Part shown: positions 1 through 28,198 of the stretch, piece by piece
How the letters are laid out: the number at the start of each line of letters is the position of its first letter
How positions within the stretch are numbered: position 1 is the stretch's first letter
Virus record (IMG/VR): IMGVR_UViG_2654587686_000021
Coordinates: 1 to 29,615 of that record
DNA length: 29,615 bases
Origin: a virus
Taxonomy: Duplodnaviria; Heunggongvirae; Uroviricota; Caudoviricetes
Strand: one strand, 5' to 3'
Notes under the pieces: model-generated
The model's input: the letters and a program-made list of their open reading frames with translations, nothing else
Database searches by the model: none
Told to the model about the DNA's origin: nothing
Position numbers and translations under genes: made by a program

Positions 1-1209
1 ATGTCGGTTTTTCATAACTGGCTGCTTGATATCGCAAGCGGGAATTACTTTATCTACATCAAACGCCTTTCTGCAAACGACACAGGCGCAACAGGTGGCC
101 ATCAGGTCGGACTTTATATCCCCTCAAATATCGTTGAAAAGCTTTTTCCATCTATCAATCATACTCGCGAACTGAACCCTTCAGTCTTCCTTACTGCGCA
201 TGTATCATCCCATGATTGCCCTGATACCCAAGCACGCGCAATTTATTACAACAACCGTTATTTTGGTAAGACCCGAAACGAAAAAAGAATTACGCGCTGG
301 GGGAGAGGAAGTCCATTACAGAACCCTGAAAATACAGGAGCCCTCACAATTCTTGCTTTCAGGTTAAACGAACAGAACACTGACTGTTCCGAGGTAGATA
401 TATGGGTCTGCGTCAATCCCGATGAAGAGGATATCATCGAGTCTGCTATTGGCGAAATCATACCTGGAACCCTAATTTCCGGCCCTGCCGGACAAATTTT
501 GGGCGGATTGTCTCTTCAGCAAACTCCAGTAAATCATAAATATGTTATTCCTGAAGACTGGAAGAAGCGTTTTCCTTCTGGAAACGAAATTATTCAATAT
601 GCTGCTGGCCATTATGCTAAAAACTCCAAGGATCCAGATGAGCAACTGATTGACCGTCGGCGTGTCGAGTATGATATTTTTCTACTCGTCGAGGAATTAC
701 ATGTTCTTGATATTATTAAGAAAGGATTCGATTCTGTAGATGAGTTTATTGCATTAGCCAACTCTGTCAGTAATCGACGTAAATCAAGGGCAGGTAAATC
801 ACTTGAACTTCACCTAGAGAAGCTTTTTATCGAGCACGGACTACGGCATTTCTCCACTCAGGCAGTTACTGAAGGTAATAAAAAACCAGATTTCCTGTTT
901 CCTTCAGCAGAGGCATATCATAACGTTGAATTTCCTGTAGAAAACTTACGTATGCTGGCAGTAAAGACCACCTGCAAAGATCGCTGGCGTCAGATACTGA
1001 ATGAAGCAGATAAAATCCATCAGGTACATTTATTTACGCTGCAAGAAGGTGTTTCTTCAGCACAATACCGGGAAATGAAAGATGCGGGTGTCAGACTCGT
1101 TGTACCATCAACTTTACATAAAAAATACCCAGAAGCAGTTAGAGAAGAATTAATAACGCTCGGAGCATTCATTACTGAGCTGATAGAACTTTACGCTGAA
1201 CTATCATAG
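1..1209 (+). CDS. ecoRIIR: Type IIE restriction endonuclease, EcoRII-like (CCWGG)
   Basis: 402-aa ORF starting exactly at window base 1. N-terminus MSVFHNWLL...KRLSANDTGATGGHQVGLYIP matches my recollection of R.EcoRII (about 404 aa). Convergent with a Dcm/M.EcoRII-family methyltransferase 35 bp away. Upstream region is outside the window. Confidence 0.75.
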   Translation: MSVFHNWLLDIASGNYFIYIKRLSANDTGATGGHQVGLYIPSNIVEKLFPSINHTRELNPSVFLTAHVSSHDCPDTQARAIYYNNRYFGKTRNEKRITRWGRGSPLQNPENTGALTILAFRLNEQNTDCSEVDIWVCVNPDEEDIIESAIGEIIPGTLISGPAGQILGGLSLQQTPVNHKYVIPEDWKKRFPSGNEIIQYAAGHYAKNSKDPDEQLIDRRRVEYDIFLLVEELHVLDIIKKGFDSVDEFIALANSVSNRRKSRAGKSLELHLEKLFIEHGLRHFSTQAVTEGNKKPDFLFPSAEAYHNVEFPVENLRMLAVKTTCKDRWRQILNEADKIHQVHLFTLQEGVSSAQYREMKDAGVRLVVPSTLHKKYPEAVREELITLGAFITELIELYAELS

Positions 1210-1243: not shown

Positions 1244-2677
1244 TCAAGGCTGCCCAGTCTTACCAGCATCAGCAGAAACAGCTTTGAGGATATAGGGTTC
1301 CAGAAGTCTGGCAACGGCTTCAAATACTGGCACCACAACGGAGTTACCGAACTGCCGATATGACTGAGTATCTGAAACCGGAATACGGAATGGTTTCCCT
1401 CCAGGTTTTTCAAACCCCATAAGGCGTGCGCACTCTCGGGGAGTCAGCCTGCGTGGTCGACGAGCCTGGTTACTCTCATTCATAAAGTCAGCCTCTCCCG
1501 TTGCCATATCCCAACCACGATCAATAAGAATTTCTGATCCGTCTTTGTGATATCTGGCAGAAAGTGTGCGTGCAATGCTTTCCTTATTCTCAGGATTGAC
1601 CAACCCAAAGCCAAAACCATTCCCCTTGGCTGCATGCTTTTTGGCGTAGTTATAAAGGTACTCCCATAGTTTTGGCGTAAGTATATATTTACTGTCGACT
1701 ACAGGCTCCAGCAATTCACCAAATGATGGGCGGTGTTCCGGATAAAAACGACTGATATCACGCAAGGTAAACCCCTTGTGAATATTCAGATCTCGTCTAA
1801 ATCCGACCAGAACAATGCGTTCACGATGCTGAGGCAAAAAATGCTTCCCATCGATAATCTTTGGATCGTTTTTTCCCATTTCTGCAGCATCGGCAACTTC
1901 GTAGCCCAGCTCGTCAAGGGTCTCCATAATGACTTTGAAAGTTTTACCCTTATCATGGCTCTTCAGATTTTTGACATTTTCCAGCACAAAAATTGCCGGT
2001 TTTTTTGCTCGTATAATACGTGCCACGTCAAAAAAAAGTGTTCCTTGTGCTTCACATTCAAAACCATGCGCACGACCAAGTGAGTTTTTCTTACTAACAC
2101 CAGCAAGGCTAAATGGCTGGCACGGGAACCCCGCAAGAAGCACATCATGATCCGGCACATGCTCATCAATATATGCATAAGCATCCGTTTCCAATACATC
2201 GGTTTTATCACTCAGCGTGACTTCCCGAATATCGAGATTGAATTTATGCACCTGTTCATCGTTAAACCAGTTGGCCTTGTATGTACGCACAGCATCTTTA
2301 TTCCATTCACTGGTAAAAACACACTGGCCTCCAATGGCCTCAAAACCTTTCCGTATCCCTCCAATTCCAGCAAATAAGTCAATGAAGCGGAAAGCATATT
2401 CCGGATGGTTTGCAGGTGGTTCTGGTAGCATCTTACGCAGAAGAGACTCTTCTACTGAAGTCAACGATTTTGGTAAACACTTGCCATTAATCCAGCGGTT
2501 GATGGTTTCACGGCTCCACTCATTTTTTCCGACTTTTCTCAGTAATTCAGCCACATACTTCTGATCATAGATTTCCAGCACTTTCTCGATAAGCTTTTTA
2601 TCATTTTCCTGTCGCAGCTTTTCTTCCGCCTCGGCTTCCTTCAGCAGATGCTGTGCCAACACTTCAAATTCAGACAT
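1244..2677 (-). CDS. ecoRIIM: DNA cytosine-5 methyltransferase, Dcm/M.EcoRII family (CCWGG-specific)
   Basis: C5-MTase motifs in the translation: [10 protein letters not shown] (motif I, AdoMet binding), [11 protein letters not shown] (motif IV, catalytic Cys), ENVKNL (motif VI), [10 protein letters not shown] (motif X). Start moved from ORF-track 2719 to the ATG at 2677 (MSEFEVLAQ...), which has a GGAGGA ribosome-binding site 4 nt upstream and gives 477 aa. Confidence 0.88.
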
Positions 2678-2984
2678 AATTCCTCCAAGGGGTCTAATGG
2701 GTGAAACTCTATCACTCATTCAACCCAGAAGGAAATGTTTTATCTGGATATTTAAACAGTGACTACAACGTAATCTAGCACTGGTGATGCTTTGTTAGGC
2801 ATAGAGAATCATTCTATATACGACTAATGACAGAAAAACAGCAGACAAGTAGTTTGTTCATAAATTAACGCATACTACGTGCCTACGGTTTTCGAGACCG
2901 GTCCAATCATCAAACGAAACATAAAATTAGCTCACATTATGAGGAAAAGTATCTTTTTTGTACTATGTAAATTCAAAGGCTTAG

Positions 2985-3854
<870 letters not shown>

Positions 3855-3876
3855 GTCTTTAAGTGATAAGCATAAA

Positions 3877-3909
3877 CCGCAGCACGATCTTGCATACGAC
3901 GTGCTACGG
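3877..3909. terminator. Imperfect hairpin between convergent GIY-YIG and invertase genes
   Basis: ccgcagcacg / cgtgctacgg (one mismatch) with 13-nt loop, followed by tttcattt on the plus strand. Confidence 0.4.
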
Positions 3910-3911
3910 TT

Positions 3912-4502
3912 TCATTTATCTCCGACCGGAAACTTCTTATACAGTGTCGATATACCAACATCATAGATGATCGCCACCTTCTGGCGAGGAACGCCTGATG
4001 CAATTAATCGCCCGGCCTGCGCCCATTGTTCTGGTGTAAGTTTGGGACGACGTCCACCAATTCGTCCCTGTGCGCGAGCAGCTTCCAGTCCAGCTTTTGT
4101 TCGTTCAACAATCAGTTCTCGTTCCATTTCAGCCAGGGCACCCATCACATGAAAGAAAAAACGCCCCATCGGTGTGCTGGTATCAATAGCATCCGTCAGG
4201 CTGCGAAAATTAACGCCACGTTCGCGCAACTCCTCAACCAGAATGACCAGATGCCGCATACTACGCCCTAGCCGATCCAGCTTCCAGACAACCAGAGTGT
4301 CACCTGCCGATAATGTCCTGAGCAGTTTTTTCAATCCCGGCCTTTCGGACTTTGTACCGCTTATCTTGTCTTCAAAAATCAGCTCGCATCCTGCACAGTT
4401 CAGCGCATTACGTTGTAGATCTGTGTTCTGGTCATTTGTTGACACACGTACATAGCCAATAAGCATGGTAGATCTCCCTGACAAAAGCAGGAATGATGCC
4501 AT
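3912..4502 (-). CDS. pin: Serine recombinase, DNA invertase of the Pin/Gin/Hin family
   Basis: N-terminal catalytic region LIGYVRVSTNDQ, resolvase-type core, and a C-terminal helix-turn-helix (RRPKLTPEQWAQAGRLIASGVPRQKVAIIYDVGISTLYK). Lies immediately beside an inverted-repeat-bounded tail-fibre segment. Confidence 0.9.
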   Translation of the reverse strand: MASFLLLSGRSTMLIGYVRVSTNDQNTDLQRNALNCAGCELIFEDKISGTKSERPGLKKLLRTLSAGDTLVVWKLDRLGRSMRHLVILVEELRERGVNFRSLTDAIDTSTPMGRFFFHVMGALAEMERELIVERTKAGLEAARAQGRIGGRRPKLTPEQWAQAGRLIASGVPRQKVAIIYDVGISTLYKKFPVGDK

Positions 4503-4532
4503 TTGCTCGTTATTTCTGCATTTTCATAAACG

Positions 4533-4563
4533 TTGGTTTGGGAGAAGCGGCAAAACGGAATGT
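4533..4563. repeat. Left inverted repeat / crossover site of the invertible tail-fibre segment
   Basis: 31-nt core ttggtttgggagaagcggcaaaacggaatgt is the exact reverse complement of 6035..6065. The flanking aaac(g/c)ttggttt resembles the AAACCnnGGTTT core of hix/gix/pix sites. Confidence 0.8.
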
Positions 4564-4900
4564 AGGTAACGAGCAAAACCAAATTCCGGATATGGCGGCG
4601 TTTGCCAGTTCACTTTCATCAACGGGGTTTCAAAAACTCCCTTCAGGTCTGATTATTCAGTGGGGTATTGTCAGTGGAGCATCAAACTATACGGTGACTT
4701 ACCCGGTAACATTCCCAAATCGTTCACTTGCGCTGTTGGCTGTGCCACATACAACGTCGGTGGCTGGTATATCTGCAATGGGCATAGCGAACTGTTCTGA
4801 TATCAGCAAATCACAGTTCTATATAATTGTTGGCGGTATATCTCAGGGAGAAATTGTCAAATATGAAAGGTCCTGTTTTTGGGTAGCAATCGGTGTATAG
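4564..4900 (+). CDS. Alternative tail-fibre C-terminal variable segment (silent orientation; joins the constant N-terminal part only after inversion)
   Basis: The plus-strand frame continues directly out of the left inverted repeat. It shares [11 protein letters not shown]...NQIPDM with the active fibre gene and then diverges. It has no start of its own; the ORF-track portion 4493..4532 is upstream of the repeat and not coding. Confidence 0.6.
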
Positions 4901-4908
4901 GTATATCT

Positions 4909-5304
4909 ATGATTTATTTCTCAAAATCGACTAATGGTTTTTTCTTTGATGGTATAAACAGCGACATGCCTGCTGACATTGTTGAGATAAGTACAGACTT
5001 ATACAATGAATTAATTGCCGGACAGCAGGAAGGGGGGGAATTAATCACGTCAGATGAAAATGGTTTACCGGTACTGAAATCTCCGGCGATTGATTATGTC
5101 GCACGTGCTGAAAATCAGCGAATGCAGTTACTTGCTCATGCCGATAATGTCACAGCTGACTGGCGGGTGGAATTAATGCTTGGTGATATCAGCAGTACAG
5201 ATAAAGAAAAACTATCTGCCTGGATGGACTACAAAAAAGAAGTAAAAGCCGTCGACACTTCGACGGCTCCTGAGATTAGCTGGCCTGAGTTACCGGAGGT
5301 GTAG
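4909..5304 (+). CDS. Tail fibre assembly protein (Tfa), partner of the silent fibre segment
   Basis: N-terminal MIYFSKSTNGFFFDG and C-terminal [12 protein letters not shown] are the conserved ends of Tfa chaperones (lambda Tfa ends VDTSTAPDIEWP). The first ATG is 4909; ORF-track start 4879 is a TTG. Confidence 0.7.
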   Translation: MIYFSKSTNGFFFDGINSDMPADIVEISTDLYNELIAGQQEGGELITSDENGLPVLKSPAIDYVARAENQRMQLLAHADNVTADWRVELMLGDISSTDKEKLSAWMDYKKEVKAVDTSTAPEISWPELPEV

Positions 5305-5695
5305 GCCATTCAATATCTGGCGCACCGGAAGTATCGACCAGTTCCAGTGCGTCCAGGTAATCCAGCCACAAATTATATTGTGCCAGTTCCTCACCTTTCA
5401 GCCGGCCAATAGCCGCTTTACCAGGCCATTGTTTACTGTTCATATAATCGTTGGCCTGTTCAATAAGTATATTTTTCATTCCCTCCGCTTCAGCTATTTC
5501 CTGTTCCTGTGTCTTCGCTGGATATTCAGTAAGTATAGGGTAGTTATCCGGGCTATTGATAATAATTTTCCCCGTACTCTGACCATTCATAAGTTCATAA
5601 TAAAGAGCATCTTCAATATCGAAAGCATCATCGGGAATATCGCTGTTGTTTTCAGAGAAAAATCCCTGAACAGATGGGGACCATTTCATTTTCAT
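5276..5695 (-). CDS. Tail fibre assembly protein (Tfa), active orientation
   Basis: C-terminal [13 protein letters not shown] Tfa signature. Start ATG overlaps the fibre-gene stop (ATGA). Confidence 0.8.
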
Positions 5696-6354
5696 AATTT
5701 CCCAATTCCTAAAATATGGACATCATCAGCCTTACGGGCATTCCAGGTGACAATTACATCGGTAGAGTGACGATTAACTGAGATTGCGTATGCTTCGTTA
5801 GTCGAGCCAGAAACTTTTGTGGCAAACACAGCAAACAGGACACCAAATGACTGGGGCCATTTATAGCCTGACAGCTGATAATTACCATTATTCAGTGTTA
5901 CAGCTTTGGCTGCTGCACTTGATGGAATCGTCAGCCACTGGAGTATCAACCCTCCTGGCAAAAGTTGTTTTCCGTAATAATCCCTCACCCCACTAAATGA
6001 AACCATGTCCGGTATCTGATTTTCCCCTGTGCCCACATTCCGTTTTGCCGCTTCTCCCAAACCAAGGTTTTCGAGAGCCGTTTTCACCGTGCCATCCGAT
6101 TTGATATCGCTAAACGGATTCTTGCGGCTTAACAGCAGCGCACGAAGCGCGGTAAGCAGCTGGTCATGCCGCCCCTTCTCCAGGCTGGCACCGGATGCCT
6201 CCACCACGCTGCAGAGTTCTTCCTGCAACATATCAAAGTAGTCATCATCAAGATCGGTGGCAGGTGTGCCGGTCTGGGGGTTACCACGGGTAAAACCGTT
6301 TTTACCCGCGCCGAACTTATCCTTCTGCGCGGTTTTCGTGTCTATACGATGCAT
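5692..6354 (-). CDS. Tail fibre protein (e14 StfP/YcfK-like); constant N-terminus outside and variable C-terminus inside the invertible segment
   Basis: 220-aa ORF that crosses the right inverted repeat at GLGEAAKRN. Gene order follows YmfQ-like and baseplate J-like genes, as in e14. Confidence 0.8.
6035..6065. repeat. Right inverted repeat / crossover site of the invertible segment
   Basis: Exact reverse complement of 4533..4563 (31 nt), lying inside the fibre gene. Confidence 0.8.
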
Positions 6355-6357
6355 GGA

Positions 6358-6942
6358 TTACTCCGGATATTTAAAAATTACGTAGGTATGCGACGGGCAG
6401 AGTTTGTTAAGCACACACTCGACAACGGTGTCGCCCCATATACGCAGCGCGGAATCACAGGGATCGCCACATGTCATCCAGGTGGTGTTGGTGGCGGCTG
6501 GCATGTTGATCTGCCAGTAATACCGCCATTCCGGCGCATTCACCTCGTCAGTACAGGCCGATGAGCAGGTGAAGGTGCTTTTGTCGTATCGCGTGATGGT
6601 GGCATCTGGCCTGCCCAGGGCAGCAAGCTGTGCAAGATAAAAATCCTCGTTGATGCCGCCCGCCAGGTTAACCTTCGCATCCAGCCGTTGCTGACGCTGG
6701 CGAAGGGTCTGCGCTCCCGCCGGAATACATTCATCCGGCAGACCGCACAGACGCTCCCAGCGGTTTATCAGTTCAGTGGTGGTGCGCGGATCCAGCTCCC
6801 GCATCAGGGCATCCGCACGCTGATGAACGCGGGTTAATGACGGTGCCGCACCGGCAATCGCCGGATCTCTGGCTGACCACGCCGGACCGGGTGGCAACAG
6901 TGCCGACAACAGACGGATGTAATCATCGTTTGTCACGTCCAT
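6358..6942 (-). CDS. YmfQ-like tail/baseplate protein (Mu gp48 position)
   Basis: Size and position between baseplate J-like and tail-fibre genes. Called from gene order and my recollection of the e14 layout. Confidence 0.65.
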
Positions 6943-8951: not shown

Positions 8952-10030
8952 CAGAACGGGTCCTCCTGTACTCTGGCTTTTTTCTTTTTCCGCGCGCCGG
9001 GGGCTTCGGGTTCAGGCAGATAAGCATCAGGTGGGCCGACACGGATTTCCGTCATGGTGCCGTTCTGGTCCTGAGTGAACGTGACTTCCGAGACAAGCAG
9101 TTCGGTATTGTCGAAACCACAGACCGGATCGAAGACAATCACCCGCTGGTTGGGCTGCCACAGCGTACCGTTACCCTGTCGCCAGCCCTGCACCAAATAG
9201 GTGGTTTCATCCGTCCGCGCCGCCCGTTGTCGGGCTTCAAAGTCAGCACGCGCAATACAGCCTGCCCCCGTGGCCTGCCCTGTCTGCCTGATATACATCG
9301 GACGGTAACGGGCAATAAATGCGTCCTCTGTGCGGGCCCGCAGCGCGGTGGTGGTGGCCTCACCGAAATCATCGTCGTTCCCGGCACGCTGCCCCGCCAC
9401 CTGGTAAACAGAAAATCGCTCCCGGATACTCTTCTCCGTATCGCAGGAAAGGATGTTTTCCCCGAGTACCAGCGCAGTATGTGCCCGCGTTGAGCCAATA
9501 CCGCCAATCACCAGCCTGCCGTGCGGGTCGTCGTAAGCCAGTGCCTGCTGCTGACCGAGTATTTTGTTGATTACCTCAATCACCGTTTCACCGTGATCAG
9601 GCTGAACATCAGGAATAACACCCGACGGCGCACCGCTGTTCACCACCTCAATGCCGAAAGGCGCAGCAAGCGCCTGCGCAATCTGCACCAGCGAGCGTCC
9701 GTTAAACTGTGTCGGTTCGGCTGCACAGTCAATCAGGTCAGCCGTCAGACTACGTCCGGCAATACCGGTGCTGACCGAACGGGCATCGTAACGAACGGGA
9801 GTCGCCTCCACCCAGCCGGTGATCACCAGCTCATCACCAATCAGCACTTCCACTTTTGAACCGTTTTTAATGCGCGGCTGAAGCGTGGTGATACCCTCAT
9901 CTCCCGGCCACTGGCGAGTGATCTCCACACTGAAATCCCGCGCCAGCCGTTCAATACCGGCACCGATGCGCACCGATGTCCAGCCATTCCACTCCCGGCC
10001 ATTTACCCGTAGCGTGACATTGTCGTTCAT
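8951..10030 (-). CDS. Mu P-like / P2 gpD-like tail baseplate hub protein
   Basis: 359 aa immediately downstream of the Mu N-like gene, as in Mu-type tail modules. Confidence 0.65.
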   Translation of the reverse strand: MNDNVTLRVNGREWNGWTSVRIGAGIERLARDFSVEITRQWPGDEGITTLQPRIKNGSKVEVLIGDELVITGWVEATPVRYDARSVSTGIAGRSLTADLIDCAAEPTQFNGRSLVQIAQALAAPFGIEVVNSGAPSGVIPDVQPDHGETVIEVINKILGQQQALAYDDPHGRLVIGGIGSTRAHTALVLGENILSCDTEKSIRERFSVYQVAGQRAGNDDDFGEATTTALRARTEDAFIARYRPMYIRQTGQATGAGCIARADFEARQRAARTDETTYLVQGWRQGNGTLWQPNQRVIVFDPVCGFDNTELLVSEVTFTQDQNGTMTEIRVGPPDAYLPEPEAPGARKKKKARVQEDPF

Positions 10031-11355
10031 TGCACTGGCACCTTCAGAGGGATCACCGGCACAAAGCCGGGATGCGTAATGGCATTACGCCGGATAATGT
10101 CCGCGTCACGCGCCGCGTTATCAAACCAGGTCGCCGCCAGCACCAGCGCGGGTAAAACCTCATCCGGTGTGCGCTGAATGATCCGTGCAGACTGTTCAAG
10201 GCGCGTGTTGATATCCGCATTCAGATCTGCTTTCACCCGGCGCAGCGCCAGAAACAGCGCATCACTGGTTGTACGGGACAACTCCTTATCAATTGCCGTA
10301 TTCAGTGTGTCGCGAATGTCAGTCAGTTCTTCCCACGTCGGCAGGTCAACCGTGTTTTTCACCGCCGGTGCATTGTTCAGTGCCGGATGCGTGACGGAAG
10401 GCCAGCCAGTGCTCTGCGCAGGTGTTGTTGCCTGCCCCACTGCGGAATTCTGCATCACCGCGGAAGTTGTTGGCGCAGGCAATCGGGTGACGGCATACGC
10501 CGCTTCACTGATTGCGGTCGTACGAAGGGTGCTGGCAACCACATTACGCTGCTGCGTAGCCGTGGCGGTGGTTTTACTGTCCGTTTTCCAGACACCGCGC
10601 GGTTGCAGATCGCTGCCGAGGCTGACACCGGAAAGCGTTTTGATCATGGTGACCAGGTCGCTGGCGTTACCATAAAGGCGTTTCCCGGTACGCCACATTT
10701 TCTGCACCTGCTCAACGAGATTTTTGCCTGACGATGGTGGCGGCAGAAGTACCGAGATATCCCCCTGCAACAGCCTGGCAGCATCCGATACGGCAGAATC
10801 CACCACTTTCATCGCATCAGAAACATACCCAAGCATTGTGCTGACATTACCAACGACGTCGTTCTGCACGAAATCCGCCACGCCATCGATACTGAAACCT
10901 CTGAAGCTGTCACTGATGCAGTCATCCAGTGCAGAACAGGATGACATCAGCGTCTGCGCCGTCGCCGCACCTGAAGTGGGGTAAGAGAGTTCTCCCGCTT
11001 CGACAAACTTCAGGTCAAAGCGGACAATACGCCCTTCACTCTTCGATGTGCTGACCCGAACTTCCCCGTCAACACAGACTTTCAGCTCACCATATGTCGG
11101 GTGGACAAGCGTGCCGGGACCGGGTTTATTCAGCGCTTCAATCAGGCGATCTCGCTGGTCAAAGCAGTCATCTCCCACCACATAAGCTGTGATGGACGGG
11201 CGGAAAGTGACTTTTCCCAGATCTTCGGTATAGGGTTTGTCGCGGTTCGGGTATTCATGTGTTTCCACACGGCGACCGGTTCCCGCACTTTCTTCTTCAA
11301 CCTTAAACGGCACACCTCGAAATGACGCATCCTGAAGCCTGTCTTTCCACGTCAT
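10027..11355 (-). CDS. Mu N-like DNA circularisation protein
   Basis: N-terminus MTWKDRLQDASFRGVPF...THEYPNRD matches the Mu gpN-type N-terminal domain as I recall it. ATG at 11355 has a GGAG ribosome-binding site; ORF-track start 11361 is a GTG. Confidence 0.7.
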   Translation of the reverse strand: MTWKDRLQDASFRGVPFKVEEESAGTGRRVETHEYPNRDKPYTEDLGKVTFRPSITAYVVGDDCFDQRDRLIEALNKPGPGTLVHPTYGELKVCVDGEVRVSTSKSEGRIVRFDLKFVEAGELSYPTSGAATAQTLMSSCSALDDCISDSFRGFSIDGVADFVQNDVVGNVSTMLGYVSDAMKVVDSAVSDAARLLQGDISVLLPPPSSGKNLVEQVQKMWRTGKRLYGNASDLVTMIKTLSGVSLGSDLQPRGVWKTDSKTTATATQQRNVVASTLRTTAISEAAYAVTRLPAPTTSAVMQNSAVGQATTPAQSTGWPSVTHPALNNAPAVKNTVDLPTWEELTDIRDTLNTAIDKELSRTTSDALFLALRRVKADLNADINTRLEQSARIIQRTPDEVLPALVLAATWFDNAARDADIIRRNAITHPGFVPVIPLKVPVQ

Positions 11356-11364
11356 ATACACTCC

Positions 11365-11416: not shown

Positions 11417-11947
11417 TTAGCGAGTCAGAAACAACGAATCTTTATACTTTTGCTGTTGTTCATTTAAATACTTAGCTGTTTCATCGCTGGCAAATGGAAA
11501 TATTACCGTATTTTTAGGCATGGTAATTTCTTTTTTGTCCAGCGTCAGAGTAAACATAGGAACATACTGAGCAGAGTAACGCACCGCAGAAACGAGCTCT
11601 AGTTTAGACTCTTCAATAACACTTAAATTATCCAGGCTAACTTTCTCTTCATCTTTTTTCTTTGACGCATTTAAAGTTTTTATTACTTTATTTAATTTCT
11701 CCTGAAAATCCTCCTTAAAGTTTTCAGGATTGCCGTCGACAACAAGAATCTGTTCACCCTGATTATCTGGAAAAATAATCTTTGCACTTATCAATTTATT
11801 TTCTTTATAAACATCACCAAGTTTTATGGCTCCTCCAGATAACTGAATAATATGTTCATCTTTAAAGGAGATGTTGCCAGAGATTATGAGAGATGAAAAA
11901 ATAGCCGCTACTCCAAGAATTACACTTGCTGTGATATAGCCTTTCAT
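11417..11947 (-). CDS. Hypothetical exported or membrane-anchored protein (AT-rich moron)
   Basis: 176 aa with N-terminal hydrophobic signal/anchor MKGYITASVILGVAAIFSSLIISG and a Lys/Glu/Asp-rich body. Markedly AT-rich, with its own downstream terminator. Inserted between tape measure and Mu N-like genes. Confidence 0.6.
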   Translation of the reverse strand: MKGYITASVILGVAAIFSSLIISGNISFKDEHIIQLSGGAIKLGDVYKENKLISAKIIFPDNQGEQILVVDGNPENFKEDFQEKLNKVIKTLNASKKKDEEKVSLDNLSVIEESKLELVSAVRYSAQYVPMFTLTLDKKEITMPKNTVIFPFASDETAKYLNEQQQKYKDSLFLTR

Positions 11948-12038: not shown

Positions 12039-13871
12039 CTACCAAAATCGGGTATAGCCAACATCGTGATTTATATCAATGCCACTGGAGCGTGTTTCCG
12101 TAACCCGCATACCTGATGGCATATTTATAAATGATACCTTGATCTCACCATCAACTTTTGGCGCGGTAGCTTTATTAATCATGAAGGGATTCGAGCCTGT
12201 GGCATCGGAGGCGTTGTTTGCCTGAGCCGGATCCACCGCCGGATAAGGAGTGTATCCCCGTGCCGGTATTCCCGTCCCATAAGCATCATAAGCACCCGCG
12301 CCCCACTGCGCAGAGTTAATGGCATCGACCGTGTCACCGGAACTGTCGGTAAACCACTCAATAATTGGCTTCAGCTTGTCCCACATATCCTGAAACCACT
12401 TAACAACCGGCCCCCAGTTATTGATCACCATCCCCAGCGGCGACCAGGCAAAAACTTTCTTAAGGAGTTCCCAGCCAGCCTCAAAATAAGGACCAATGGT
12501 TTCCCAGAGTTTCTTAAAATAAGGTCCGACAACATCCCAGTTAGTGATAATTAATCCCGCAGCCAGGGCTATCGCCGTCGCAATCATGCCAATCGGCGTC
12601 ATCGACATGATCCTGCTGACAATACTGATGGCACCGCCAACGCCCATCAATCCCAGTTTCAGAATCGCAAGACCGGCAGCAAGCCCGACGACGCCGCGAA
12701 TAACCCGGGGATTTTCATCCGCAAACTTCGTGAATTTTTCCCCCAACTCCCCCAGCCATTGCGTGATATTTTTAGCGTCACCAGAAAATGCGCCGCCAAT
12801 AGCAGCAAGACCGTTAGTTGCGGTCCCCGTCATTGCCTCCCACAGGTTGGACAGCGTACCAAGCTGAGCCTGAACACGTTTATTCAGGCTGGCCTGTTTA
12901 TTCATCTTCTGCTGGATCTGATCGTAGCCATCCTTTCCTTTATCGATCAGGGCATTGACCACCTGAAGGGTTTCGGCATCATCACCAAATATTGCCTTAA
13001 GTACGCCTGTTCGCTTAACGTCGGTCAGTTTTCGCAACTTTGCCAGTTGCCTGAACATGTTATCAAGACCGCCAAAACTTCCTTTGCCGTCAGTAAAATC
13101 GAGCTGTACCCCGAGTTTCTGGCGGGCCATGACTTTATTGACGTCCCTGATTTTCTTAACACTTAATCCGGACTGGATAACTTTTCGCAGGGCATTACCT
13201 GCCGACTCCCCGTTCATCCCCATCTGATCCATCATGACGCTGATGGGGGCAAGGCTCTGTGCAGCCTGAAGACCGTCCTTGTTCACCATCTTCAGAACAG
13301 AACTGGTTTTAGTGAAGAAGGACAACATGTTGGTATCGTCAACGCCCAGATAAAACGCCTTCTGGATAGTGTCGAACAGCCCCATCATGTCTTCTGACGC
13401 CGTTCCGGTAGCATCCTGCATCTTTGCAGCAAACTCAGCAGCCGCTTCCGGTGTTTTTTTCAGTTGTACCGCAAGATAAGCTGTCGCTTTACCCACACCA
13501 CCCAGAATGTTTTCTGCCGGGATCCCCTGCCGCACCAGCATCTGCATCATGTTCTGGAAATCAGCCGTTGTACCGGGTAGCTGGTTACCCAGGCCAATAG
13601 CCAGTTTATTGATGTCCTGAAAGCTCTTTCCAACCTCGCCGTTCGCATCCATCATGGCGACTTTCAGCCCGGTAGCGGCGTTTTCCTGATCGGCATAAGA
13701 TTTCAGGGAAAGCGTCAGCCCCGCTGCCAGTCCTCCACCAAGCGCCAGCCCACCCTGTGACGCTTCTTCCGCCTGGCGTTTAAATCCCCGGATTTTCTTT
13801 TGCATTTTCGACAGCGCGGGAGAAAGCCTGTCGACACCGGTGATCAACGCCTTAAGCTCAAATTCAGCCAT
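12039..13871 (-). CDS. Tail tape measure protein
   Basis: 610 aa with Ala/Gly-rich helical N-terminal half and hydrophobic Gly-rich central segments, directly downstream of the frameshifted chaperone. Confidence 0.85.
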   Translation of the reverse strand: MAEFELKALITGVDRLSPALSKMQKKIRGFKRQAEEASQGGLALGGGLAAGLTLSLKSYADQENAATGLKVAMMDANGEVGKSFQDINKLAIGLGNQLPGTTADFQNMMQMLVRQGIPAENILGGVGKATAYLAVQLKKTPEAAAEFAAKMQDATGTASEDMMGLFDTIQKAFYLGVDDTNMLSFFTKTSSVLKMVNKDGLQAAQSLAPISVMMDQMGMNGESAGNALRKVIQSGLSVKKIRDVNKVMARQKLGVQLDFTDGKGSFGGLDNMFRQLAKLRKLTDVKRTGVLKAIFGDDAETLQVVNALIDKGKDGYDQIQQKMNKQASLNKRVQAQLGTLSNLWEAMTGTATNGLAAIGGAFSGDAKNITQWLGELGEKFTKFADENPRVIRGVVGLAAGLAILKLGLMGVGGAISIVSRIMSMTPIGMIATAIALAAGLIITNWDVVGPYFKKLWETIGPYFEAGWELLKKVFAWSPLGMVINNWGPVVKWFQDMWDKLKPIIEWFTDSSGDTVDAINSAQWGAGAYDAYGTGIPARGYTPYPAVDPAQANNASDATGSNPFMINKATAPKVDGEIKVSFINMPSGMRVTETRSSGIDINHDVGYTRFW

Positions 13872-16296: not shown

Positions 16297-16857
16297 TCAG
16301 GAAGGAAGGGTTATTTCGGTGTGATGTTCGATATCGCCGTCAGGCCCGTTACCGGGCTCGAGATAATCAACATCAATCGCCAGCGTTTGCAGTTCATCCA
16401 GACTGTTCAGATCATCCTGCTGGCGGGTATCGTCTTCAGTCAGCTCGCTGATGACCGAAAAATCGAACTGATAAATCAGCTCATGACGATTCAGATCCAG
16501 CAGCGTGCCGCCGTCATAGGTAATCGGGTTACCGCACGCTTCCGGGTTCCAGCCCAGCAGGGCCTTAAAGAGCATCTGCCGGACATCGTCCACCACATCA
16601 TATGAGGCAAACTGACCGCGCTCATCACGCCCGTTACTCAGTATGACAACCACGGAGAAGCCCTCTTTCAGCTCCTGCCAGTAGTCGGTCTGGCTTTTGT
16701 TTTCTCCCGGAGAGTCATCACCCGGTACCACATACGCCGCCGGGAGTCTCAGCTTTCCGACCTCCGGCAGATTTTTGAACTGTGCCGCGCCTGCCACCCG
16801 GTTTTCAAAATACGGGCAGCGGGCACGCAGCGCAGCAATAACAGGCGTCAGTTTCAT
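16297..16857 (-). CDS. Tail completion / Mu gp37-like protein
   Basis: 186 aa between HK97 gp10-like and sheath genes. Confidence 0.55.
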   Translation of the reverse strand: MKLTPVIAALRARCPYFENRVAGAAQFKNLPEVGKLRLPAAYVVPGDDSPGENKSQTDYWQELKEGFSVVVILSNGRDERGQFASYDVVDDVRQMLFKALLGWNPEACGNPITYDGGTLLDLNRHELIYQFDFSVISELTEDDTRQQDDLNSLDELQTLAIDVDYLEPGNGPDGDIEHHTEITLPS

Positions 16858-17360
16858 CTGTGTCGTCGCTCCGGCTTCAGTGATTTACGCAATTCCCGCG
16901 CCAGAAAATAGCGTGTCCAGCTGCGGTTCTTTTCAAGAGTTTCCACCATGAAGTTATTACGTGGAGCCAGTCGCCAGCCGCTGCCACCGGATGCGCCACG
17001 ATGATGACTACGACGACGTTTTGCTCCTCCCCGGACACCAAAAAACAGAAACGCCGGATAGAAGTCACCAGAGATCATCCGGTTCCCCTTCCCGTTGCGC
17101 TGGTTAGGGGCAATGCGTGTCATAAAACCGGCTCGCTTTTTACTGGCTCTCGGCACCATATAACCAATCGAACGAGCCAGGCGTCCGGTCTGATAACCGG
17201 GGTTTTCACCCGGTGCCGACCGCGCACGGCGCATCACCAGCCGACGGGCATCACGCATATGACGCTGCCCAATCGTGACAAACGCCCGCCGGACACGGGC
17301 GCGGTTAAAGCGCATCTCGGCGGGCTGCTGAACATCAACGTGAAAAAAGGGAGTCGCCAT
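16854..17360 (-). CDS. HK97 gp10-family head-tail joining protein
   Basis: 168 aa, Arg-rich, at the expected position after the head closure protein. Confidence 0.65.
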   Translation of the reverse strand: MATPFFHVDVQQPAEMRFNRARVRRAFVTIGQRHMRDARRLVMRRARSAPGENPGYQTGRLARSIGYMVPRASKKRAGFMTRIAPNQRNGKGNRMISGDFYPAFLFFGVRGGAKRRRSHHRGASGGSGWRLAPRNNFMVETLEKNRSWTRYFLARELRKSLKPERRHR

Positions 17361-17745
17361 TGCTGCCTCCGTGACTCTGCCTACATTCGCCCAGCTCCGT
17401 ACACTCCAGCAGCAGAAAGCGCCGCGCCCCGTTCAGATCACGCTGACGTTTCACCCGGTACACACTGTCATCACAGACCACCTCATAATCAGCGGTGATC
17501 CCCCGGCGGTAACGAATGGTGATGTAATGGGTGATGGCGTCCCCGGTCTGCGCGGTTTCCTGCCAGGTGGTGGCACTGGTCTGGATAACCTTCGCCCATG
17601 TCCGGAACGTAACCGGGTATTGAGGCTCCACGCCAAAGTTATCCGCGGGCATATCCACCCGCTGGCGGATCAGGACGCGTTTATTCAGTTCACCGGGGTC
17701 CGGCAGAATGTAGGTTGCGCTGGTCTGCGCCTGACGAATTTTCAT
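17335..17745 (-). CDS. Head closure / head-tail adaptor protein
   Basis: 136 aa, follows the gp6-like connector gene. Confidence 0.65.
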   Translation of the reverse strand: MKIRQAQTSATYILPDPGELNKRVLIRQRVDMPADNFGVEPQYPVTFRTWAKVIQTSATTWQETAQTGDAITHYITIRYRRGITADYEVVCDDSVYRVKRQRDLNGARRFLLLECTELGECRQSHGGSNGDSLFSR

Positions 17746-18065
17746 TGCGGAAAGTACCTGTACGGGCCGACAAGCCAGCCAAAACTCTGCGGCATGTCGA
17801 GTTTCTCCACTTCCGTAACCGACGAGCGGTTTTCGTAAAAATGGCTGATAAGCATCAGCATCCCCAGACGAATATCATCCGGCAGGTGCAGCCCGTCCGG
17901 ATCGCTGTCCGGAATGGTTTCATCCGGTGCATAGAGCTTCCGGTTCAGATACGTTTCCGTCCGCTTTTGTGCCGCACAGGCCAGCAGTTGCAGATGGCGG
18001 TCATCAGCATCGAAATCCTCATCCAGCCGGAGTTGGGCTTTAATCTCTTCCATTGTCAGAAGCAT
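17742..18065 (-). CDS. gp6-like head-tail connector protein
   Basis: 107 aa; MLLTMEEIKAQLRLDEDFDADD..ENR pattern typical of phage gp6-like connector proteins. Confidence 0.7.
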   Translation of the reverse strand: MLLTMEEIKAQLRLDEDFDADDRHLQLLACAAQKRTETYLNRKLYAPDETIPDSDPDGLHLPDDIRLGMLMLISHFYENRSSVTEVEKLDMPQSFGWLVGPYRYFPQ

Positions 18066-24379: not shown

Positions 24380-25138
24380 TTATTTTTTCTTCTTATTTAA
24401 CTTATCTAAATTGACGGGATCTTTCCCTGTGGCAGCTAAACACCAAAAAGAATAACTCTTTTGCATGACATAGGTTCTAATTCTCTCTAATGTTTCATTA
24501 TATTTTTTCTCAACAACCTGTATCGCATGTTCAAATAAATTAATCATATCAACATGCTCGTCCTCGACACCAATCATGCTCAGTTGTTTTCTATCTGTCA
24601 CTGCTTGATAAAATGTTTTCCCATTTTTCCTTATTAGTAACAATGAAGTTTCTGCTGACTCATAGTCTTGGTTGCCGCTATGTGCTGCAAAATTATGCCT
24701 GTAGTTAATAATACAGTCATGCAACCCAAAATATTCAGAATCAAGCCAATCACGCTCCATCTTTAACTTTCTCCCTTTAGCTTCAGAGAAAGCTTTACCA
24801 TAAAACGTTAGGCTTGCCACAAATAACGCTCTAATTTCACTTGATAAATCTAGATCAAGTATATTCCCGTATAACTTGCCATCTGTCCTTAATTCGTTTC
24901 TCCCTGCCAGTTCATTAGCTATTTGGTACCACTCTTTAGCACTTTTTAAGTCCCTATGAATTAGGGACAGTGAAGATGCTCTATCGGCAATACGCCCACT
25001 CAATTTTATGCGATCTACAATTTCATTATTGAATGTATAAACCGCTTTAAATTCCCCCGTTTCGGAATCAATATAATATTCAACATCTAACCCTTCATAT
25101 GATTCACACCCGGGACCTTCTAATTTTTTTCTTTTCAT
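24380..25138 (-). CDS. Hypothetical protein (AT-rich moron between lysis cassette and packaging genes)
   Basis: 252 aa from the first ATG (ORF-track start 25162 is a TTG). No motif I recognise; AT-rich with Lys-rich termini; own terminator downstream. Confidence 0.6.
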   Translation of the reverse strand: MKRKKLEGPGCESYEGLDVEYYIDSETGEFKAVYTFNNEIVDRIKLSGRIADRASSLSLIHRDLKSAKEWYQIANELAGRNELRTDGKLYGNILDLDLSSEIRALFVASLTFYGKAFSEAKGRKLKMERDWLDSEYFGLHDCIINYRHNFAAHSGNQDYESAETSLLLIRKNGKTFYQAVTDRKQLSMIGVEDEHVDMINLFEHAIQVVEKKYNETLERIRTYVMQKSYSFWCLAATGKDPVNLDKLNKKKK

Positions 25139-25219
25139 ATAGAATATCCATATACGTTTCAATTCTCAGTCAGCATAGTAGAAAAAAAAGATGTCCAGAT
25201 CCATACATCGAAAGCAATT

Positions 25220-26785: not shown

Positions 26786-27727
26786 ATGAGTACAGAAAAT
26801 AAGAATAAAACCAGGCGAGTGAGAGTTGGTTTTTTCACTGGTAATGGAAGCAAAAAAGATGGCACATCTGCTGCAAAACTAGCCTTTGAGCAAATGACCA
26901 CAGCAGATACTGTAACTTTTCCAATAACTTACACAACAGACACCCCAAGTCGAGGGTTAAAGTTAGTTATTCTTCAAAAAGATACCACACTGCAATGTTA
27001 CTTTGGTTACGTATCGTGGAGAAGGGAATGCCTACTACCGTTCATCGAGGATGCTACAGGTAGTGAGAGAACAATTCCTTTAAATGATAAAGATTCTGTA
27101 GTTGAAAGAACATATTTTATCTATTACTACGAAACGGACTTATTAGCTATGACCCTCAACCATATAGGGCCCAAAGTAAATGATCTGGCATTCATTTTGT
27201 ATAACAAAACTGATTTAAAAAGCGTCACTTTTGAAGCCATTTGGAAACAAGAGAGCATGAAGGAACTGCTTGAGGACGGAAATATCCTACGTAGTTTCGA
27301 TCTTATAGTTGCTGCTCCAAGAAACTTTAACAAAGCTAATTATAAGATTAAAAACCCTTTAGCTAATGAAATTATTGACATGGTTGTTGGTATGGGCGGG
27401 TCGCATCTAAGATTAAATATGCGAGGTCGGATTCGCCCGAAAAAACAAGGGTTTAACTATCTAAAAACTTCTGTCACCGATGCTATTAAGGAACTACTTG
27501 AACTTTTTCCAAAAGGTTCTGGAGGTCTAAAAATTAAAAAAATTGATGTAACAGAGCCATCCAATAGAACGCCCAAAAGTCTACTTGACCAAGTATTGGT
27601 CAGTACAAAGACAATCATTGTCAAAAGCGGTTATCCATCCGATTCTGATATCAGAACGGCGATGATATCTGCTAAAATTGATAACGCGAACTATCTTGCA
27701 CAGTATGAGCTCGCTAGCAGAGACTAA
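26786..27727 (+). CDS. Hypothetical soluble protein, first gene of AT-rich two-gene cassette (candidate sensor of an abortive-infection/defence module)
   Basis: 313 aa with no recognisable catalytic motif; AT-rich codon usage unlike flanking phage genes; followed 21 nt later by a membrane-protein gene with a strong ribosome-binding site. Confidence 0.6.
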   Translation: MSTENKNKTRRVRVGFFTGNGSKKDGTSAAKLAFEQMTTADTVTFPITYTTDTPSRGLKLVILQKDTTLQCYFGYVSWRRECLLPFIEDATGSERTIPLNDKDSVVERTYFIYYYETDLLAMTLNHIGPKVNDLAFILYNKTDLKSVTFEAIWKQESMKELLEDGNILRSFDLIVAAPRNFNKANYKIKNPLANEIIDMVVGMGGSHLRLNMRGRIRPKKQGFNYLKTSVTDAIKELLELFPKGSGGLKIKKIDVTEPSNRTPKSLLDQVLVSTKTIIVKSGYPSDSDIRTAMISAKIDNANYLAQYELASRD

Positions 27728-27748
27728 TAACCAAGCATGGAGGACACA

Positions 27749-28198
27749 ATGAGAGAATTAGCCACTTTTCTCTGGAAATGCGTCCTCTGGATTCTGTTGA
27801 CCTATGCAGCGACAAAACTGTTTAAACCGATGAAGCATGCTGACGTACTCACAACAGCGGGGGTGCTCTCGACTATATCAGGCATCCTGTTTGGTTTTGT
27901 TCTGGCTGCAATATCTATATTTAGTAGTGCAAACAGCGATAAGGAAGGAGCAATTAATGCCCTTAAGCAAAACAACGTGTTACCAACTCTGGTAAATAGA
28001 TTACTTTCAACAGGGTTAACTCTCATCGTCGCATGTATATTTCCATTGATAGCGATGTTTCTACCTGATGATGTTATTGTTGCGGGCAAACCTATTGATT
28101 TCCTGTTCATACTGTTAGGCTTATCCTCCCTTATAATTTCGCTATATACCTTCGGAAGGTGTTGGTTAGTGTTACGAAAAATCTTCCCCCACTTGTGA
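27749..28198 (+). CDS. Small polytopic membrane protein (four predicted TM helices), second gene of the cassette
   Basis: GGAGGA ribosome-binding site 4-5 nt upstream of ATG 27749 (ORF-track start 27737 is 12 nt further up). Hydrophobic segments FLWKCVLWILLTYAATKLF, VLTTAGVLSTISGILFGFVLAAISIFSS, LLSTGLTLIVACIFPLIAMFL, IDFLFILLGLSSLIISLYTF. Confidence 0.65.
   Translation: MRELATFLWKCVLWILLTYAATKLFKPMKHADVLTTAGVLSTISGILFGFVLAAISIFSSANSDKEGAINALKQNNVLPTLVNRLLSTGLTLIVACIFPLIAMFLPDDVIVAGKPIDFLFILLGLSSLIISLYTFGRCWLVLRKIFPHL

Follow-up and report, generated by a model that had tools for sequence, protein, structure and literature searches.

What does a small DNA invertase gene do beside the end of a phage tail-fiber gene, and can the device to which it seems to belong still turn? 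The question is raised by positions 3912-6354 of IMG/VR record IMGVR_UViG_2654587686_000021, a caudoviricete sequence of which we analyzed nucleotides 1-29,615, referred to here as the window. This locus had previously been described, from the letters of the sequence and its open reading frames (ORFs), as a complete Pin-type inversion switch for the tail fiber (the original prediction). Our analysis leads to the same place with more precision: with a probability of roughly 93%, the locus is the Pin/P-segment site-specific inversion switch of an e14-type Escherichia coli prophage, which swaps the tips of the fiber.

The segment in question is bounded by two arms, a left one at 4533-4563 (TTGGTTTGGGAGAAGCGGCAAAACGGAATGT) and a right one at 6035-6065, which are exact reverse complements over 31 base pairs (bp), as had been claimed, and the match cannot be extended by a single base at either end. 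The chance expectation of a perfect inverted repeat of this length in the 29.6-kilobase (kb) window is ca. 1e-10 (ca. 4.4e8 position pairs/4^31). Inward of the perfect arms, sequence comparison revealed an imperfect inverted repeat (4528-4595 and 6003-6070, 84% identity), explained by the homology that the two variable cassettes of the fiber gene have in their first codons. The perfect repeat terminates precisely at the AA core of the crossover sites, and it is at this central core dinucleotide that strand exchange takes place in the Din family of recombinases. Counted from core to core inclusive, the invertible segment is 4533-6065 (1,533 bp), the same piece that is found inverted between close relatives. 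The peptide shared by both cassettes, which the repeat itself had been said to encode, has to be trimmed slightly. The residues GLGEAAKRN and the first two bases of a Val codon do fall within the repeat; the third base of the Val codon (GTG/GTA) and the final Gly codon (GGC/GGT) are just beyond it, the differences being synonymous.

A 26-bp crossover site is located at each end of the segment. The pin-proximal one (4521-4546, minus strand, TTCTCCCAAACC AA CGTTTATGAAAA, core dinucleotide at 4533-4534) and the distal one (6052-6077, plus strand, TTCTCCCAAACC AA GGTTTTCGAGAG, core dinucleotide at 6064-6065) correspond, respectively, to the published pixR and pixL (PMC3241671, Table 3). With the K-12 genome as a second source, genome comparison showed that both are also base-for-base identical to the e14 sites of E. 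coli K-12 MG1655. They are in inverted orientation, have identical AA cores, and fit the consensus of the Din family, TTC---AAAC- -A -GTTT---GAA. The outer part of each repeat had been noticed to resemble hix, gix, and pix sites, which is correct for the inner half-site and the AA core, both within the repeat. The repeat arms leave out the two outer half-sites, at 4521-4532 and 6066-6077, which are not the same as one another; each site thus straddles the outer end of a repeat arm. Searching the whole window with the pix inner half-site plus core (TTCTCCCAAACCAA, up to two mismatches) returned just two matches, so that the switch has two states, in contrast to multiple-inversion systems of the Min type. 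A third crossover site, as in a shufflon-like or Min-type array, was rejected on the basis of this search.

The invertase gene, pin (3912-4466, minus strand), codes for a small serine recombinase of 184 amino acids starting MLIGYVRVST. It is intact and full length, with the Pfam domains Resolvase (8.9e-52) and HTH_7 (5e-13), and gave no match in PADLOC. The product is identical to K-12 PinE at 175 of 184 positions (95%), all nine differences being conservative, and has 77% identity to Gin of phage Mu and 80% to Cin of phage P1. It keeps the YVRVS9T motif with Ser9 and every alignment column that is invariant among Pin, Gin, and Cin. The alignment also showed conservation of K46, K47, and R50 (helix B), R153, and L154, numbered one less than in Hin. 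In the latter protein, K47, K/R48, and K/R51 contact the enhancer and R154 and L155 contact Fis, and these residues have been described as specific to DNA invertases (PMC3798978).

Members of this family carry out inversion with the help of a recombinational enhancer, and in the P1 record, codons 7-30 of cin are annotated as an “enhancer of Cin-mediated C-segment inversion.” The equivalent stretch here, at the 5′ end of pin and also covering codons 7-30 (4377-4448), aligns without gaps to P1 (55/72 positions, 76%), to Mu gin (54/72, 75%), and to K-12 pinE (70/72, 97%). It contains two G-N13-C 15-mers, with a spacing of 49 bp, that are positioned as in gin. Its near edge is 85 bp from the pin-proximal crossover core, and for Hin, the distance between enhancer and site is ca. 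100 bp (PMC3798978). From this homology to the Cin, Gin, and Hin systems, we infer that 4377-4448 would act as a Fis-dependent enhancer.

The fiber gene as assembled (5692-6354, minus strand) is a single ORF of 220 amino acids made up of three parts: a constant one of ca. 96 codons outside the repeats (6066-6354), the joint provided by the repeat (6035-6065), and a variable one that we call Sv (5692-6034). The first ca. 100 residues are nearly identical to StfP (ycfK) of K-12 e14, and a sequence search of the PDB detected a weak likeness of residues 37-107 to the N-terminal part of the Mu fiber protein S (E value of 0.01). A second C-terminal cassette of ca. 110 amino acids, Sv′ (4564-4900, plus strand), is separate from the constant part in the captured orientation; it matches the Pfam family Gp53-like_C (7.3e-15) and, weakly, a putative tail fiber protein in the PDB (4mtm, 1.5e-4). 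The similarity between Sv and Sv′ is confined to their first 30 amino acids. When 4533-6065 was inverted in silico, Sv′ became fused in frame to the constant part, giving a fiber of 218 amino acids. Comparing the two C-terminal segments with known receptor-binding domains, as had been proposed, provided hints at the level of fold families (Gp53-like_C, PDB 4mtm, and the N terminus of Mu S), and the PDB matches are weak, so receptor specificity cannot be read from them.

Each cassette is accompanied by its own tail-fiber assembly chaperone, tfa with Sv (5276-5695, minus strand, 139 amino acids, Pfam Caudo_TAP 3e-22) and tfa′ with Sv′ (4909-5304, plus strand, 131 amino acids, Caudo_TAP 3.1e-24). 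Caudo_TAP is the family of assembly chaperones of the lambda gpK type, and relatives of tfa′ carry the annotation “tail fiber assembly protein.” The two proteins share 33% identity, and the 3′ ends of their genes overlap by 29 nucleotides. The ORF map and the Pfam assignments thus bear out the arrangement first proposed, with the constant part outside and two C termini plus two Tfa genes inside in opposite orientations, and 5692-6354, the ORF joined to the constant part as sequenced, is indeed the variant that would be expressed here.

Inversion can be seen among relatives of this locus. A query in which the locus had been flipped by simulation matched E. coli ANT with the same score as the native query on E. 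coli DAM, in both cases at 97.9% identity over all 2,601 nucleotides. These two strains, isolated from seawater in Lebanon, have chromosomes of 4,603,072 (DAM) and 4,603,065 (ANT) bp and are identical to each other over 8,601 nucleotides except for the exact inversion of the segment corresponding to 4533-6065. The same was found for N17 and N24, two cerebrospinal fluid isolates in which the pin-plus-cassette module belongs to a P2-like prophage: across 8,061 nucleotides, an exact inversion of the homologous segment is all that distinguishes them. Screening 5,426 complete E. coli genomes with 330-nucleotide queries that span the pin-proximal junction, we found the orientation of the window in 80 and the other one in 26. 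In K-12, the P segment inverts within clonal cultures in a manner dependent on Pin-family recombinases (PMC4272514, PMC12529663). The original prediction had named a single fixed orientation together with an inactivated invertase as what would speak against the switch; what we find is an intact invertase and both orientations in near-isogenic relatives. Judging from its sequence, this copy is probably active.

The switch would work as follows. Dimers of Pin would bind both pix sites (4521-4546 and 6052-6077) and, with host Fis sitting on the enhancer in the 5′ end of pin, would assemble into an invertasome. Both sites would be cut at the central AA/TT dinucleotide and, upon rotation and religation, the 1,533 bp of 4533-6065 would end up inverted. 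Transcription of the late tail operon on the minus strand would run from the baseplate genes through the 96 constant fiber codons (6354 to 6066) into whichever cassette is joined, i.e., Sv and tfa in the captured orientation (fiber of 220 amino acids) or Sv′ and tfa′ in the inverted one (218 amino acids). A population of lysogens would in this way release virions with two fiber tips, presumably with two receptor specificities. The original prediction had called the locus a host-range device of the e14, Mu G, and P1 C type. Those switch elements that sequence can show agree with this description (invertase, sites, enhancer-equivalent, and two in-frame C termini with their chaperones), and by analogy with Mu G and P1 C, inversion of the fiber would be expected to alter the host range.

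One more element might make the two states unequal. Directly 3′ of the stop codon of the active tfa, and within the 3′ coding end of the silent tfa′, there is a terminator-like hairpin followed by a T run (5244-5271, minus strand), with a 12-bp stem, a folding energy of -18 kcal/mol, and a z score of -3.65. It is kept in DAM, in ANT, and in the P2-like phage Cartapus (NC_070909), and terminator and folding scans found no counterpart on the plus strand after 5304. Late transcription may therefore stop at 5244-5271 in the present orientation and, after inversion, continue antisense through the other cassette and then through pin in sense. This asymmetry could make late read-through into pin, and with it the bias in switching, dependent on orientation.

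Some points weigh against the locus being a working host-range switch. A single sequence is available here, and inversion of this particular copy cannot be read from it; the nearest relatives seen in both orientations are 97.9% identical (DAM and ANT) or, in the case of the P2-like prophage of N17 and N24, ca. 94.6% identical. For e14-type fiber variants, an effect on host range is so far an expectation drawn from Mu and P1, and the e14 of K-12 is defective, its inversion having been tied so far to defense against T2 (PMC12529663). The match of Sv to Gp53-like_C (0.0064) is below the Pfam cutoff. Finally, a simple promoter scan of 3800-6500 found no site placed to drive pin, in a region where promoter-like sites were fewer than in shuffled controls, which makes the scan uninformative.

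The T2 result is the starting point for another explanation, in which the switch serves mainly the lysogen. Outside the invertible segment, a short leader (4493-4532, plus strand, MMPFARYFCIFINV) is in frame with whichever cassette adjoins pin, so that in the present orientation 13-14 codons from outside are joined to the pin-proximal cassette in the ORF 4493-4900. A free, leader-fused tip translated from the ATG at 4493 or 4496, together with Tfa, might mask an outer-membrane receptor against superinfecting phages, a function compatible with one in host range, and each inversion would change the receptor being masked. K-12 stfE (MPFACYFFIFINV) and gp22 of Cartapus (MPVSRYLCIFINV) have this in-frame leader as well. 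In K-12, StfE2, a product of P-segment inversion in e14, is reported to prevent the adsorption of T2 (Kirigo et al. 2025, PMC12529663), and here the locus adjoins defense cargo in the form of an EcoRII-type restriction-modification system and PD-T4-3. However, the promoter scan found no site upstream of 4493, where the gap to the divergent pin start is 26 bp, and the AGGA motif is 0-3 nucleotides from the ATGs, which is a poor Shine-Dalgarno spacing. Because the outer pix half-site and the leader overlap, the latter may have been conserved for a function of the DNA, and its amino acid changes across the three copies are non-conservative. Besides, the prophage in the window has a full set of virion genes, and its variable cassettes are unrelated to those of K-12. 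On balance, a switch devoted mainly to protecting the lysogen seems unlikely. We are equally doubtful of a scheme with two products, in which each orientation would yield a virion fiber with one tip plus a free leader-fused protein carrying the other, although it would couple the host range of the virion to a complementary shield against superinfection.

It is less likely still that the segment, with its sequence intact, has become locked in this strain, for instance through a pin gene that is not expressed or through a prophage that is defective outside the window, where the integrase and early region are situated. The single orientation seen, unavoidable with a single sequence, would agree with a locked segment, and so would the threefold excess of this orientation in complete genomes (80 versus 26). 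Yet, in K-12, inversion through PinE persists even though e14 has decayed much further there (PMC4272514, PMC12529663). Moreover, Pin, the pix sites, and the enhancer-equivalent are free of inactivating changes, and the near-isogenic pairs, DAM with ANT and N17 with N24, differ in orientation. The perfect repeats, with their 31 bp, are near the minimum length for exchange mediated by RecA, and the sequence of an inverted product does not show the exchange point within the repeat. Nevertheless, RecA-dependent homologous recombination, with the neighboring recombinase being incidental, is extremely improbable: the repeats end precisely at the AA core of pix sites that are canonical and do not differ from those used experimentally, the perfect repeat is just 26 bp in DAM/ANT and N17/N24, and the K-12 e14, with a 16-bp repeat, requires Pin-family recombinases to invert, a pinE pinQ mutant being locked (PMC12529663).

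The surroundings of the Pin switch are those of a phage. The window covers most of a full-length e14-like prophage, in which a lambdoid early region is combined with a head of the HK97 type and a contractile tail like that of Mu. Going leftward along the minus strand, the order is Q antiterminator, lysis genes, terminase, portal, protease, and HK97-type capsid, followed by Mu-like genes for the sheath, tube, tape measure, and baseplate and then by ymfQ, the fiber, and the switch. The gene immediately upstream of the fiber (6358-6942) belongs to the YmfQ/Mu Gp48 family of Pfam. As the virion genes upstream are intact, the fiber gene is the last one in an apparently intact late operon, a context that fits a role in virion host range better than the decayed K-12 e14 does. 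The best match to the whole window is found in E. coli R12 (98.2% identity over 92% of the query), in an element located beside ssrA. In this closest relative, the invertible region (16492-18034 in R12 coordinates) has different cassettes and three partial pseudogene fragments of tail-fiber assembly genes, indicating that in some lineages the content of the segment is being rearranged and is decaying.

The distal crossover site appears to be a boundary in more than one sense. Homology to the module of Cartapus and of the prophage in strain LF82 ends at 6076, at the outer edge of this site, and it is also here (ca. 6065-6077) that the GC content rises, from ca. 0.42-0.47 on one side to 0.54-0.60 on the other. 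This suggests that the invertase and its cassettes move as a unit between unrelated tail-fiber genes and phage types, with the pix site as the edge. The exchange of modules between phages is a long-recognized feature of fiber genes.

On the other side of pin, the window begins at the ATG of an EcoRII-type endonuclease gene (1-1209, plus strand; Pfam EcoRII-N and EcoRII-C, PADLOC REase_II 1.5e-233), which is convergent with a C5 cytosine methyltransferase gene (1244-2719, minus strand), the two forming a type II restriction-modification pair. In R12, this pair is found ca. 235 bp from ssrA, at the end of the prophage. Next comes a gene (3081-3854, plus strand) for a LEM-3-like GIY-YIG protein with a full-length match to the single-gene anti-phage system PD-T4-3 (PADLOC, 2.4e-140). 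Since the restriction-modification pair and PD-T4-3 are found where the K-12 e14 carries mcrA, the slot beside pin looks like an exchangeable site for defense cargo. ORFs of low GC content occur elsewhere in the window as well. One of 176 amino acids with a hydrophobic N terminus and a GC content of 0.325 (11417-11947, minus strand; without a match in Pfam or PADLOC) separates the tape-measure (12039-13871) and DNA-circularization (10027-11361) genes and, by coordinate offsets, is absent from R12, which suggests a moron inserted within the tail operon. Following an HNH endonuclease gene, there is a low-GC ORF of 260 amino acids without a family match (24380-25162, minus strand). Between the holin and Q antiterminator genes, a pair of ORFs (26786-28198, plus strand) codes for a protein of 313 amino acids without a family match and a predicted membrane protein of 153 amino acids with a weak, below-threshold match to DUF4064. 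These last three ORFs, with a GC content of 0.36-0.41, are candidate accessory or defense genes.

The sites, the recombinase, and the logic of the system, like the system itself, were already known, so this is an ordinary, well-understood feature, and beyond correct annotation, the importance of one more textbook Din-family inversion switch is small. RefSeq labels the 97.9%-identical locus of strain DAM as pinE and ymfQ. What annotators may take from this case is that two “gp53-like” ORFs beside pin are the halves of one switchable fiber gene and not separate genes, and that assemblies of the region may differ among isolates, or be mixed within one isolate, through inversion alone. Unlike the decayed K-12 e14, a full-length prophage such as this one is suited to testing both a possible effect of fiber inversion on host range and, for the pin-proximal fusion ORF, an anti-phage role like the one recently claimed in K-12.

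How does the locus compare with the known switches of this kind? Shufflons use tyrosine recombinases, in contrast to the serine recombinase found here. The Min system of p15B also has a Din-family recombinase acting on fiber C-terminal cassettes, and its mix sites resemble pix (PMC3241671); however, it has six sites and many permutations, versus two sites in the 29.6 kb of the window. The Mu G/Gin and P1 C/Cin systems follow the logic seen here, with a constant fiber N terminus outside the segment, two convergent pairs of C terminus and chaperone inside, and an adjacent gene for an invertase that is 77-80% identical to Pin. This gene has the enhancer (in pin, the putative equivalent) in its 5′ end, and the crossover sites fit one consensus. 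Here, the segment is much smaller (1.5 kb, compared with 3.0 kb for Mu and 4.2 kb for P1), and the fiber is much shorter (220 amino acids versus the 504 of Mu S). The core of the sites is AA, as in hix and cix, whereas in gix it is GA. The variable domains and chaperones belong to families different from those of Mu and P1, namely Gp53-like_C, clear for Sv′ only, and Tfa of the lambda gpK type. The effect on host range has been demonstrated for Mu and P1 and is a prediction for e14-type fibers.

As for the cassettes themselves, relatives are also found in a different type of phage. Over 4017-6076, the invertase and both cassettes are ca. 94.7% identical to those of Cartapus, a P2-like phage, and of the LF82, N17, and N24 prophages, which also share the pin-proximal site and the terminator hairpin. 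In Cartapus and LF82, however, the module is joined to a P2-type fiber of 473 amino acids instead of the 96-codon e14 constant part, and the outer half of the distal site is different (GGTATGCGAGAA).

The closest system overall is the K-12 e14 (stfP-tfaP-tfaE-stfE-pinE). Both have identical pixL and pixR, a Pin matching at 175 of 184 residues, the first ca. 100 residues of StfP, and the ymfQ baseplate gene upstream, as well as the same gene order, the same 29-nucleotide overlap of the tfa 3′ ends, and the same leader ORF beside pin. The segment is 1,797 bp in K-12 and 1,533 bp here, and the perfect repeat is 16 bp in K-12 and 31 bp here. Past the joint, the cassettes are unrelated, with the similarity to StfP ending a few residues after GLGE; K-12 has the StfP and StfE tips, and the window has two other ones (Sv′ in Gp53-like_C and Sv below the threshold). 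This is a difference of alleles or cassettes and not of mechanism. The K-12 e14 is a 15-kb remnant located at icd, whereas the prophage of the window, whose relative in R12 is at ssrA, is full length and has every head, tail, and lysis gene. On sequence grounds, therefore, the switch appears to be, more specifically, the e14 Pin system in a full-length prophage and with cassettes other than those of K-12.

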